Positions 16,746-18,224 of a stretch of DNA of 32,403 nucleotides are shown piece after piece. The DNA is from a virus. Lineage: Duplodnaviria > Heunggongvirae > Uroviricota > Caudoviricetes. The DNA is taken from IMG/VR virus record IMGVR_UViG_2617270968_000008, positions 1-32,403 of that record; one strand, 5' to 3'. The translations under genes were made by a program, and so were the position numbers. Numbering within the stretch: the first letter of the stretch is position 1; every line of letters begins with the position of its first letter. Below the pieces are notes generated by a model, which was given only the letters and a program-made list of their open reading frames with translations, had not been told where the DNA came from and did not search any database.

Positions 16746-16937
16746 TGCACTCCTGTTGTTTCTGGTGGTGATGGTGGACTTCAGCAGCCGGATAATGTCG
16801 GTGCTGTCTGATGGTGTTTTGGTGGCGGGTGTGTGGTTGTTGCTTTCCCGTTGCTGAAAAAGAAAGCATCAGGCGATTAGCAGGGTATCAGTTACACGTT
16901 GAAATTTTTAAATACCTCACAATTCCACAGCTTGATG

Positions 16938-17135
16938 ATTGTCTGGCTGCCGGAGAATTTGTTAAAAATTACATCGCATGGTGAATCCCCCTCAGCGGCG
17001 GGGCATCTGGCAAAGTGTATGATCCAGAGAACATGCAAATTCAGTAGACAGGCTGAATTTACCGGGAGGCCCCTGGCACCATGCGACAGACAGAAATTAG
17101 GCTATACTTCAGCCCCTCTCCGGAGGGGCTTTTCT
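16938..17135 (+). ncRNA. Candidate structured small RNA, copy A (uncharacterised)
   Basis: About 200-nt unit paralogous to 17407-17608; conserved long-range helix CGCATGGTG / CACCATGCG, internal hairpins, and terminal terminator CAGCCCCTCTCCGGAGGGGCT + TTTTC (17111-17134). Frame-breaking indels between copies argue against coding. Confidence 0.45.
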
Positions 17136-17159
17136 GTGCAGGATGTGTCACAGTTTCCT

Positions 17160-17346
17160 GAATTCTGAGTACTGTCCTGTTACTCAGGGTGCTATATTTT
17201 CTGACGTGATGAAAGTCTGCCGGAAGGCGGAACGTATCGGAAATGACCCAGTAGAGAAAACGTTGACTCAGATACCGATGCTGAGTTACCGGGAAACCGG
17301 CATCACATGACCGCTATCCTTCCAGGCTCGCTCCGGCGGGCCTTTT
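17160..17346 (+). ncRNA. Candidate structured RNA unit ending in a terminator (uncharacterised)
   Basis: Several local inverted repeats (CTGAGTA...TACTCAG, ACTCAG...CTGAGT) and a terminal hairpin GGCTCGCTCCGGCGGGCC + TTTTT at 17324-17346; no credible ORF. Confidence 0.3.
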
Positions 17347-17406
17347 TACTGCAGAAAACAGTTTTCCCGTAAAATGCCACGTTGCTCATAATTCAGGCTG
17401 GCGATT

Positions 17407-17608
17407 ATTGTCTGGCCGGCGGGAAGTTTGTTAAAAAATTTCGCATGGTGAATCCCCCTGTGCGGAGGGGTAATCAGCGAGTAGGTATATGGGATAATCG
17501 CGGATTCAGGTGCTGGTACTGAATTCACCGGGAGGCACCCGGCACCATGCAATGGCACATAGCGCCACTCTCCAGCCCCTCTCCGGAGGGGCTGTTTATA
17601 TTGATTTT
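17407..17608 (+). ncRNA. Candidate structured small RNA, copy B (uncharacterised)
   Basis: Paralogue of copy A with the same helices (GCATGGTG/CACCATGC; CCGGG/CCCGG where copy A has a G-U-compatible variant) and the identical terminator hairpin 17574-17593 followed by a T-rich tract. Confidence 0.45.
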
Positions 17609-17628
17609 GTCAGATGTGAGTAAACTCC

Positions 17629-17964
17629 TTATGGACTTTGTTGTTTTAGCCCATAAGGACATATTTGCAGAGTGCAACGGTTATTAAAGCATTCATTCAA
17701 TACGTTATCTGTATTTGTAGGGCATTCCTGGCTGTTTTTGATTAAATTCCAGAATGTTTTATTGAATGGTACTACGTTGTAAATGGTTACAGGTAGCACT
17801 TTGTTATTGAGCATGATGCCTGTGTGAGTCAGTGTAAATATACTTTCAGGAGGTAAGAAAGCATCCGATTGATACCAGATTATTAATTTTATTTTACTCC
17901 ATATGACTGAAAAAGATATTCCGCATGATGGCTGGATAACTGTATCAATCACAATCCACTTCAT
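17629..17964 (-). CDS. Hypothetical Cys-containing protein in an AT-rich island
   Basis: 111-aa ORF with AAGGAAA RBS 5 nt upstream of the ATG; strongly AT-rich codon usage unlike flanking phage genes; no recognisable motifs. Confidence 0.3.
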
Positions 17965-18224
17965 TTAGTTTCCTTGTTTATGCCTTGCTGGTGATGTTCT
18001 GAAAAGTATAAATGATATTTTTGATTGTAAACCATAGAGCAGAATTATTTTTCTGATGTTGTTTATTGTTTATTTAAATGCAGGGTGGTTTATATCTCGT
18101 CTTGTAGTTTATCCATGCATATCTGCTTGATGATGAGGTTTTTATTTAAGGTATGGTTTTGTGTTTTTTCTGTATTACATGTCAGGTATTTTAAAGAATC
18201 ATTTTTCAGATGGTGGAAAGAACC

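Follow-up and report, generated by a model that had tools for sequence, protein, structure and literature searches.

An STnc100-family RNA gene cluster and an iraM homologue between the tRNA genes and nanS-p of a lambdoid prophage

The genome of an Stx2a phage carries, in order, tRNA genes, stx2AB, STnc100, iraM, and nanS-p, and the corresponding segment is analyzed here in a viral DNA of 32,403 nucleotides (hereafter the window). The first-pass annotation of positions 16780 to 18210 described an stx-equivalent cargo slot holding structured RNA units and an AT-rich open reading frame (ORF), and every sequence feature that it listed is present at or near the position given. Gene order in the window is Q, methylase, tRNAs, three RNA units, iraM, SASA esterase, holin, and lysozyme (Table 1). 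This puts the segment among the late genes of a lambdoid prophage, with Q and the tRNAs on one side and the esterase and lysis genes on the other, an arrangement shared by the Stx2a phage and EPEC PP2. The entire segment was found in 1005 of 5426 complete Escherichia coli genomes, or about a fifth, and this exact locus is carried by strains such as JKHS016 and AST198. We find that it consists of members of a catalogued prophage sRNA family (STnc100, related to EcOnc27 and PasD) together with the known gene iraM, and its content is thus already known.

Table 1. Features of the segment and its right-hand landmark, with positions numbered along the window.
Feature	Position	Strand	Remarks
tRNA-Arg(UCU) argO, 5′ half	16700..16737	+	truncated just 3′ of anticodon loop; left junction of replaced segment
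DUF3927-family small hydrophobic ORF, 38 aa	16741..16857	+	Pfam PF13064, 42.6 bits (cut-off 25)
Copy A promoter, predicted	16939..16968	+	TTGTCT, 18-nt spacer, TG-extended TAAAAA
STnc100 copy A RNA, predicted	16976..17137	+	core 16976-17084, linker 17085-17110, terminator 17111-17130
Middle unit promoter element, predicted	17190..17198	+	extended -10 TGcTATATT; unchanged in both alleles, upstream sequence diverging
Middle unit, diverged third STnc100 core copy	17204..17349	+	core 17204-17308, CU-rich linker, terminator 17324-17343
Copy B promoter, predicted	17408..17437	+	TTGTCT, 18-nt spacer, TG-extended TAAAAA
STnc100 copy B RNA, predicted	17443..17600	+	core 17443-17550, linker, terminator 17573-17594
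iraM-like anti-adaptor gene, 111 aa	17629..17964	-	NCBIfam NF007393; convergent with copy B
AT-rich divergent intergenic region, iraM/nanS-p	17965..18209		GC 0.28-0.38
nanS-p type sialate O-acetylesterase	18210..20081	+	Pfam DUF1737, SASA, DUF6645; landmark outside RNA cluster

Comparison with the Stx2a phage showed that the notion of an stx-equivalent slot holds for only part of the segment. Homology detected by blastn stops at 16737 and picks up again at 17427; from there on, window and phage are colinear through STnc100, iraM, and nanS-p. The left junction cuts argO in half: alignment to intact argO from the Stx2a phage and from strain SF-088 is good to ...CCTTCTAAGCA and diverges beyond it, and ARAGORN and Rfam call only two tRNAs. 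No stxA or stxB is present between argO and STnc100, and the ORFs within 16738-17426 lack Pfam matches except for the DUF3927 ORF (a "DUF3927 family protein" in RefSeq). Only 16738-17426 thus occupies the stx position. Copy B and iraM are normal neighbors of stx rather than its replacement, as is evident from the Stx2a order, in which STnc100 (149.5 bits) begins 75 nt downstream of stx2B and is followed by iraM. Copies A and B share with this phage RNA, STnc100/EcOnc27, the closing helix, the hairpins, the terminator, and a match to the full Rfam model, and they occupy the same place between Q/tRNAs and iraM/nanS-p, with copy B colinear. Differences from the phage RNA lie in the variable central hairpin and in the linkers. 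Unlike the Stx2a phage, the window carries two canonical tandem copies with a diverged one between them, and no stx.

Membership in STnc100 (Rfam RF02076) was judged by the gathering score of its covariance model, which is 47 bits. Across the full model, copy A scored 138 bits (16946-17139, E 1.3e-30) and copy B scored 132.5 bits (17415-17603, E 3.5e-29), and hence the Rfam search that the first-pass annotation had recommended overturns its statement that the units could not be assigned to a known family. Its proposal of two paralogous units of about 200 nt is borne out by these matches and by blocks of direct repeats, which pair 16934-16968 with 17403-17437 (83%), 16974-17003 with 17441-17470 (90%), 17053-17084 with 17519-17550 (91%), and 17107-17133 with 17570-17596 (93%). 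The long-range helix said to be preserved in both copies is indeed present, being complementary at 10 of 10 positions in copy A (TCGCATGGTG/CACCATGCGA, 16974-16983 with 17077-17086), and a matching helix, GCAUGGUG/CACCAUGC, closes copy B from 17443 to 17550. Likewise, the small helix reads CCGGG/CCCGG in copy B and CCGGG/CCUGG in copy A, where it contains one G-U pair, as had been noted. The minimum free energy (MFE) fold of copy A recovers the family architecture (z = -3.3). Terminator-like hairpins end all three units, and a terminator scan reported 13 such sites against 4.2 ± 1.9 in shuffles. The U-tails of copy A (UUUUC) and copy B (UGUUUAUAUU) are short or interrupted, a disadvantage for both Hfq binding and termination.

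To describe the conserved part of the family, a core-only model (R1) was built from 47 distinct cores; 13 of 50 aligned viral-contig sequences recovered by exact-word search were chance 13-mer matches and were dropped before modeling. The core comprises four helices, in which a closing helix surrounds a 5′ hairpin, a variable region, a long hairpin, and a short hairpin that abuts the 3′ strand of the closing helix. This last hairpin has 5 bp in the family and 4 bp in the middle unit. All three units align to R1 (118.4 bits for copy B and 92.8 bits for copy A), and each folds alone by MFE into the family architecture. In an alignment of 14 divergent cores, itself fitted to the model, pairing is retained in 99.4% of cells, as against about 40% in slid controls, and both partners have changed in 18 of the 27 pairs. 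Over the 47 cores, sequence is near-invariant in the closing helix and in the first and last hairpins together with their loops. The core is kept across copies and the linkers diverge between them, and arrays of two to four units are present in other contigs. Among aligned family members there is no conserved reading frame between core and terminator, where the tails are unalignable, and the ORFs at 16899-17168 and 17143-17310 were set aside as coding candidates, having no Pfam match. The compensatory pairing changes and the lack of a conserved frame uphold the view of all three units as RNA genes rather than coding sequences.

The third structured unit that had been placed between copies A and B is also real and ends in its own terminator. 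It recurs flanked by two STnc100 copies in many contigs. Its closing helix is GUGAUG/CAUCAC, its MFE fold has the same architecture (core z = -3.9), and an allele with 86% identity keeps all first-hairpin pairs, one double change included. Against the Rfam STnc100 model, 17175-17350 covers the full model but scores 30 bits (E 2.8e-4), below the gathering score, and against R1 the unit scores 29.1 bits (E 1.2e-5). As judged by these scores, the middle unit is a diverged relative that falls outside curated STnc100 membership.

We next consider where the RNAs would begin. The promoter block predicted for copies A and B is conserved between them and among family members, and PasD2 of EPEC E2348/69 has the same layout, which puts +1 on its mapped 5′ end (NC_011601 741157), the first base of GCAUGGUG. 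By homology to this mapped end, promoter DNA probably accounts for the initial 35 to 40 nt of each 200-nt unit, and the RNAs would then be about 145 to 160 nt long. For the same reason, the first ~30 positions of the Rfam STnc100 model probably also represent promoter DNA, given that the PasD2 end coincides with the initial base of the closing helix. In the middle unit, the spacing of the extended -10 element would put +1 at about 17206, the first base of its closing helix. Note that the proposed -10 elements of copies A and B lack the usual T at -7 and that a promoter scan reported no plus-strand site in this region. Therefore, the 5′ ends could instead be processed from a longer transcript. 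The scan did report minus-strand candidates, TTAACA-N16-GACAAT, at 16965-16938 and 17434-17407. These appear less credible than the plus-strand reading, in that the second hexamer is GACAAC in most family members, without the final T.

Several other identities were weighed. PasD1 and PasD2, which are homologues of EcOnc13, have the same core (GCAUGGUGAAUCC..., GGGAGGC..., with the closing helix starting at the mapped 5′ end) and the same neighbors as the window units, namely a DUF3927 ORF upstream (in EPEC E2348/69, a homologue of the window ORF lies upstream of PasD2) and a SASA esterase downstream. PasD2 scores 41.4 bits with the STnc100 model and is thus sub-threshold like the middle unit. 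PasD differs in occurring as a single copy per locus and in having a longer 3′ tail with a proposed UGUGAG seed and an 8-U terminator. No TGTGAG occurs in 16976-17137, 17204-17349, or 17443-17600, the nearest being at about 17616, beyond the copy B terminator, and the units were accordingly not classed as PasD proper. The suggested comparison with AgvB and AsxR was negative, as neither family (RF02702, RF02703) matches either strand of 16690-18260 at E ≤ 10. Those RNAs occupy the same moron region 3′ of PR′, but they are short, fold differently, and lie on the opposite strand. In another prophage (L006), an AsxR gene is convergent to the second STnc100 copy, and here iraM holds the convergent position. 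A tRNA, tmRNA, or tRNA-like identity was rejected, since ARAGORN and Rfam find only the two intact tRNAs. In EPEC, PasA lies between nanS-p and the gene for the holin; its published probe sequence could not be placed anywhere in the window even when three mismatches were tolerated, and the nanS-p/holin intergenic region is only about 150 nt here.

The AT-rich minus-strand ORF is present as described, encoding 111 aa, but it had been left without an identity that can now be given. Its product matches NCBIfam NF007393 (IraM) with 162 bits against a cut-off of 121 over residues 1 to 110 of 111, and this full-length match constitutes its likeness to K-12 IraM. RefSeq and phage records also annotate the ORF as IraM. 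GC content is 0.32 to 0.36 across the gene, and the AT-rich DNA in which it lies has 28 to 36% versus about 50% on both flanks, which resembles horizontally acquired genes. The IraM protein of E. coli K-12 is an anti-adaptor that protects RpoS from RssB. Unlike the chromosomal K-12 gene, the window gene is a prophage-borne paralogue, and the anti-adaptor role is predicted from its sequence. A minus-strand promoter-like site was reported by the scan at 18072-18044, between iraM and nanS-p, the latter being a SASA family carbohydrate esterase in RefSeq.

Published work on homologues provides a context for the RNA units. Tree et al. (2014) described sRNA genes in the moron slot downstream of PR′, and convergent sRNA genes occupy this slot in Sp5 and seven other Sakai prophages (PMC4104026), in agreement with the Q/PR′ late-region position assigned to the units by the first-pass annotation. 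Discrete Hfq-associated transcripts are known for EcOnc27/sRNA103, PasD1/2, and STnc100_4. According to PMC12711010, the Hfq-binding RNA EcOnc27 (Tree et al. 2014), or sRNA103 (Gruber and Sperandio 2015), overlaps STnc100 3′ of stx2B, and the effects on fimZ and espA transcripts cited there come from overexpression reports only. A predicted 11-nt match of STnc100 to stxB has also been reported. In EDL933, all 11 STnc100 copies are transcribed and one is positive by Northern blot (PMC5331693). PasD1 and PasD2 are abundant Hfq RIL-seq sRNAs of EPEC verified by Northern blot (PMC8550237), and their RNA levels are barely altered in a Δhfq strain under the activating condition (supplement to PMC8550237). 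A common ancestor has been proposed for PasD and STnc100 (bioRxiv 10.64898/2026.05.13.724894).

Very probably, then, the segment is an ordinary late-operon moron region of an stx-negative, Stx-phage-like lambdoid prophage, in which three same-strand sRNA genes of the STnc100/EcOnc27/PasD type are followed by a convergent iraM and by nanS-p. Each unit looks like a self-contained gene with a promoter, a core from +1, a variable linker, and a terminator. In this proposal, a weak sigma-70 promoter with a TG-extended -10 would set the transcription start at the first base of the closing helix (8 bp, or 6 bp in the middle unit), yielding an RNA composed of a compact 5′ core that is probably a stabilizer, the linker, and a Rho-independent terminator. 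The linker, which varies between copies and is CU-rich in copy B and the middle unit, is the probable seed, since the proposed PasD seed sits at that position. Such RNAs would most likely be trans-acting, Hfq-associated base-pairing regulators in the lysogen, and during lytic growth Q-modified polymerase would transcribe through the units.

Other functions were considered for the same architecture. The presence of three terminator hairpins within a 500-nt stretch that separates the tRNAs from the lysis cassette would also suit units that act mainly in cis on the late transcript, with the sRNAs as by-products. Under such an arrangement, nanS-p and the lysis genes would be protected in the lysogen by the tandem terminators against read-through from the tRNA cluster and from promoters upstream, and the structured cores would act in the processing or stability of the Q-antiterminated mRNA. 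The weak plus-strand promoters, the arrays of two to four units elsewhere, and a terminator-less core copy inside the polycistronic dicF-dicB leader are consistent with this model. Nevertheless, we consider it unlikely, given that homologues are discrete, abundant RNAs in uninduced cells, that they bind Hfq and have specific RIL-seq partners, and that conserved cores with divergent linkers suit seeds better than terminator cassettes.

It is quite improbable that the core instead serves chiefly to bind a protein or to mimic tRNA, as a sponge or an RNase P substrate, with linker pairing being secondary. At E ≤ 10 the units match neither tRNA, tmRNA, nor any other family, and the closing helix is not followed by a CCA or a discriminator-like 3′ end. 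The near-invariance of helix, hairpins, and loops in 47 cores does exceed what a scaffold needs, and the topology is cloverleaf-like, the last hairpin lying directly against the closing-helix 3′ strand. The exact coincidence of the PasD2 5′ end with the first base of that helix would also fit, but it is explained equally well by conserved promoter spacing. Most improbable is the production of small peptides from a GGAGG in the last core hairpin loop and an AUG in CACCAUGC 11 nt farther on. Although GGGAGGCACCCGGCACCAUGC is near-invariant across the family and ribosome-footprint/transcript ratios reach 3.2 for some EDL933 STnc100 copies (PMC5331693), the sequence past the AUG is unalignable among members, which have several unrelated tails, and the frame crosses the terminator with no stop codon within the terminated RNA. 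Moreover, the AUG is paired in the closing helix, variation tracks pairing rather than codons, and the ORFs overlapping the units have no Pfam match.

The main outcome is a correct label for the segment, which holds STnc100/EcOnc27/PasD RNAs and an iraM paralogue that are standard in Stx-type prophages. The tandem arrays of this family include a diverged copy that is missed by Rfam thresholds and by genome annotation. The number of paralogues in each strain and the differences among them matter for target searches and deletion experiments, as stx2-linked STnc100 SNPs have been reported as predictors of HUS (PMC12711010).

A more speculative and rather doubtful idea is that the STnc100 core is a portable RNA module that has its own function, beyond the scaffold of one sRNA family. 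If true, it might be recognized by a protein or nuclease and might be a 5′ stabilizer, a processing signal, or a tRNA-like substrate. Near-invariant loops, cloverleaf-like topology, and a PasD2 5′ end on the helix would fit a recognized module of this kind.

The core was observed in three settings: at the 5′ end of sRNAs, in the diverged middle copy absent from annotation, and internally between DicF and dicB. The sRNA tails on the core are interchangeable, comprising the STnc100 type, the PasD type, and at least one further class. The copy between DicF and dicB, at 4628-4753, is sub-threshold, unannotated, and without a terminator, and a recent dicBF paper makes no mention of structure in this spacer. 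Its position in the dicF-dicB leader hints that the core may act in cis. About 84% of complete E. coli genomes, K-12 among them, have the DicF-dicB stretch that holds this copy.

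By scanning the whole window with Rfam at gathering thresholds, we determined that two of the three tandem plus-strand RNA units, copies A and B, are members of the STnc100 family (RF02076, gathering score 47). The first-pass annotation had assigned the units to no known family, a statement that is wrong. Its description of them as paralogues was borne out by repeat analysis of 16400–18300, which revealed four repeat blocks common to both copies with a spacing of 466–469 nt and 83–93% identity. The proposed long-range helix of copy A pairs 16974–16983 with 17077–17086 (10/10 complementary). 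The Rfam alignments of both copies contain the GCAUGGUG/CACCAUGC closing helix, the variant small helix (CCGGG/CCCGG in copy B versus CCGGG/CCUGG in copy A), and the common terminator that had been noted, as well as a CCCCC/GGGGG hairpin. Terminator-like hairpins are present at all three expected sites, and a terminator scan returned 13 sites versus 4.2 ± 1.9 in shuffles. The reading of the units as RNA genes is supported.

Features of the window, with matches and predicted elements
Feature	Position	Strand	Evidence or sequence
DicF-dicB core copy	4628–4753	−	R1, 64.8 bits, E 1e-14
DicF	4774–4825	−	Rfam, 77 bits
sok antitoxin RNA	10474–10649	+	Rfam, 117 bits
Upstream genes			Q (PF03589), DNA methylase, two intact tRNAs
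argO, cut	16700–16737		ends just after anticodon loop
DUF3927 small protein	16741–16857		Pfam, 42.6 bits
Copy A	16946–17139	+	RF02076 'Gammaproteobacterial sRNA STnc100', 138 bits, E 1.3e-30
Copy A, predicted RNA	roughly 16976–17137	+	
Copy A, linker			GACAGACAGAAAUUAGGCUAUACUUC
Copy A, terminator-like hairpin	17111–17130		
Middle unit	17175–17350	+	RF02076, 30 bits, E 2.8e-4, below gathering score
Middle unit, core	17204–17308	+	R1, 29.1 bits, E 1.2e-5
Middle unit, predicted RNA	roughly 17206–17349	+	
Middle unit, linker			AUGACCGCUAUCCUUCC
Middle unit, terminator-like hairpin	17324–17343		
Copy B	17415–17603	+	RF02076 STnc100, 132.5 bits, E 3.5e-29
Copy B, predicted RNA	roughly 17443–17600	+	
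Copy B, linker			AAUGGCACAUAGCGCCACUCUCC
Copy B, terminator-like hairpin	17573–17594		
IraM homologue	17629–17964	−	NCBIfam NF007393, 162 bits (cut-off 121)
Downstream gene			DUF1737-SASA esterase, nanS-p type
IS009	30828–31026	+	Rfam, 224 bits

The middle unit matches RF02076 over the whole model at a permissive threshold. We built a core-only covariance model (R1) of the four-helix 5′ domain common to STnc100/PasD relatives from 47 distinct true cores, obtained by an exact-word scan of viral contigs and from previously fetched loci. RNAalifold assigned 27 pairs in four helices to these cores, with compensatory changes concentrated in the long internal hairpin, in which AU replaces GC in 18 sequences. 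R1 scores copy B at 118.4 bits and copy A at 92.8 bits, and it also matches the middle unit, which retains CUGAGUU-A-CCGGGAAACCGG-CAUCAC, corresponding to CUGAAUUC-A-CCGGGAGGCACCCGG-CACCAUGC in the family. Among 14 divergent cores, 99.4% of cells pair in an alignment that was itself fitted to the model, and both sides change in 18 of the 27 pairs; sliding the 3′ partners by 1–3 columns as a control gave about 40% pairing. When folded alone by free energy, each unit adopts the same layout (z-scores −2.0 to −3.9), in which a closing helix encloses a 5′ hairpin, one or more central hairpins, and a final hairpin directly adjacent to that helix's 3′ strand.

Two alleles of the middle unit (at least 99% and about 86% identity) are together carried by 673 complete E. 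coli genomes, and no record among these genomes annotates it. Between alleles, all three substitutions in its first hairpin preserve pairing, including one double change from U-A to C-G, and the upstream 50 nt diverge freely around an invariant TGcTATATT motif. Other prophages and viral contigs likewise contain a middle unit flanked by two further units. STnc100-type arrays can exceed this triplet, as four tandem cores occupy about 1 kb of IMGVR_UViG_2861053794_000003 (2326–3350, minus strand). The middle unit terminator (17322–17347) is 88% identical over 26 nt to a hairpin site in a Stx2a phage locus (6302–6327) that lies directly 3′ of argO and 5′ of stx2A.

A further R1 match, flanked by DicF and the start codon of dicB (4598), is a diverged STnc100 core that has no terminator of its own. 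Its closing helix, AUGUGGUG/CACCGCAU, differs from the family consensus by compensatory changes, and the copy retains the GGUGAAU and GGAGGCACC.GGCACC motifs. The Rfam STnc100 model gives it 38.7 bits (E 6e-7), which is below the gathering score. This stretch is shared by 4559 of 5426 genomes, K-12 included; none of the 4559 E. coli genomes has an annotation beneath it, and a recent dicBF paper describes no core-like structure in the spacer. Together with the diverged middle copy, this copy extends an already known kind only modestly.

The EPEC sRNA PasD2 extends over NC_011601 741157–741328 (Table S6, PMC8550237), its 5′ end at 741157 falling on the initial G of GCAUGGUG. The sequence upstream of this 5′ end reads TTGACT, 18 nt of spacer, TAAAAA, and then another 7 nt. 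Copies A and B and the family consensus have TTGTCT, an 18-nt spacer, a TG-extended TAAAAA, and 5–7 nt before the same G, and in the middle unit TGcTATATT precedes the first G of GUGAUG by 7 nt. Because of the mapped PasD2 5′ end and this promoter spacing, we infer that positions 1–30 of the Rfam model correspond to promoter sequence and not to transcribed RNA, and that every unit forms a gene complete in itself, with a transcript that would start at the base opening the closing helix. The promoter scan reported minus-strand TTAACA-N16-GACAAT sites at 16965–16938 and 17434–17407, inside the conserved block that we take for the plus-strand promoters of copies A and B, and antisense or divergent transcription may begin there.

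The linker between core and terminator is short and wholly different between copies, being CU-rich in copy B and the middle unit, and the seed proposed for PasD occupies the equivalent position. The 5′ core could serve as a stabilising domain, followed by the linker as a variable seed and then by the terminator. Judged from sequence, this layout fits a trans-acting sRNA that would have a different target set per copy. Counting against an sRNA-gene anatomy are predicted −10 elements without T at −7, a promoter scan that found no plus-strand promoter at the units, poor U-tails in copies A and B, and pasD levels that barely depend on hfq (supplement to PMC8550237).

Alternatively, the units may act chiefly in cis, their terminators insulating and their cores serving processing or stability. 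The dicBF operon, whose core copy lacks a terminator, lends this reading some weight; overall, we consider it improbable. That the units encode peptides from GGAGG and a following AUG is very unlikely because their tails do not align and the AUG is engaged in pairing. In copies A and B, the GGGAGGCACCCGGCACCAUGC stretch (17067–17084 and 17533–17550), near-invariant in the family alignment, contains an SD-like GGAGG within a hairpin loop; an AUG follows 11 nt later and forms part of the closing helix. Sizeable ribosome coverage has been reported on some EDL933 STnc100 copies by RIBOseq (PMC5331693). More speculatively, the core might be a protein-binding or tRNA-like element, for which the very high conservation of loop sequences and the topology speak.

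Earlier publications already describe the RNA family, where it lies, and its association with Hfq. The moron region downstream of Q-antiterminated PR′ holds convergent sRNA genes, with EcOnc02 (AsxR) and EcOnc27 located 3′ of stx2B in Sp5 and a similar organisation in seven other Sakai prophages (Tree et al. 2014, PMC4104026). EcOnc27, named sRNA103 in EDL933, binds Hfq and overlaps an STnc100 prediction; its overexpression raises fimZ and espA transcripts (as cited in PMC12711010), and its SNPs are among HUS predictors (PMC12711010). All 11 STnc100 copies in EDL933 are transcribed, one being positive by Northern blot (PMC5331693), and STnc100 RNA has been found in STEC outer-membrane vesicles (PMC12370729). 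PasD1 and PasD2 are abundant EPEC sRNAs identified by Hfq RIL-seq (PMC8550237), and a common ancestor of PasD and STnc100 has been proposed (Zhu, Shabalina and Storz, bioRxiv 10.64898/2026.05.13.724894). The Rfam STnc100 model scores PasD2 at 41.4 bits, below threshold.

The Stx2a phage Stx2_EH2201 has the order methylase, three tRNAs, stx2A, stx2B, gap, iraM (minus strand), and esterase, and the gap contains an STnc100 copy (149.5 bits) starting 75 nt after stx2B. By blastn, 16404–16737 is colinear with the Stx2a phage at 93% identity, ending in the middle of the third tRNA, and 17427–18382 corresponds to the STnc100-iraM-esterase stretch at 71% identity. Because colinearity ends at 16737 and resumes at 17427, only 16738–17426, comprising the DUF3927 ORF, copy A, and the middle unit, replaces the 3′ half of argO and stx2AB. 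The earlier assignment of the whole segment to an stx slot thus stands only for this interval, which sits at the stx2AB position, whereas copy B and iraM are neighbours shared with stx rather than substitutes. In the ileZ-argN-argO cluster, the third tRNA, argO, is cut and joined to the DUF3927 ORF, marking a junction where recombination took place within a tRNA gene; beyond it, the sequence is similar to that of the DUF3927-PasD2 region in EPEC prophage PP2. The full 1.5-kb segment occurs in 1005 of 5426 complete E. coli genomes (at least 80% coverage) and in four phage records (97% identity).

The AT-rich minus-strand ORF is present as described (111 aa; 28–36% GC versus about 50% on both sides) and encodes a homologue of the IraM anti-adaptor, as phage and RefSeq records also label it. 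The sok, IS009, and DicF matches are typical of Qin-like lambdoid prophages. The esterase-holin spacer (20082–20231) is only about 150 nt long and lacks PasA, an sRNA that EPEC encodes here on the minus strand; at the end of the spacer is a terminator-like hairpin on the plus strand, GCCATCAG...CTGGTGGC, with T7 after it. A locus of E. coli STEC2018-607 carries an AsxR-type anti-sRNA gene (2986–3038, minus strand; 63 bits, exactly the gathering score) convergent to, and directly after, its second STnc100 copy, whereas the window has iraM at that position.
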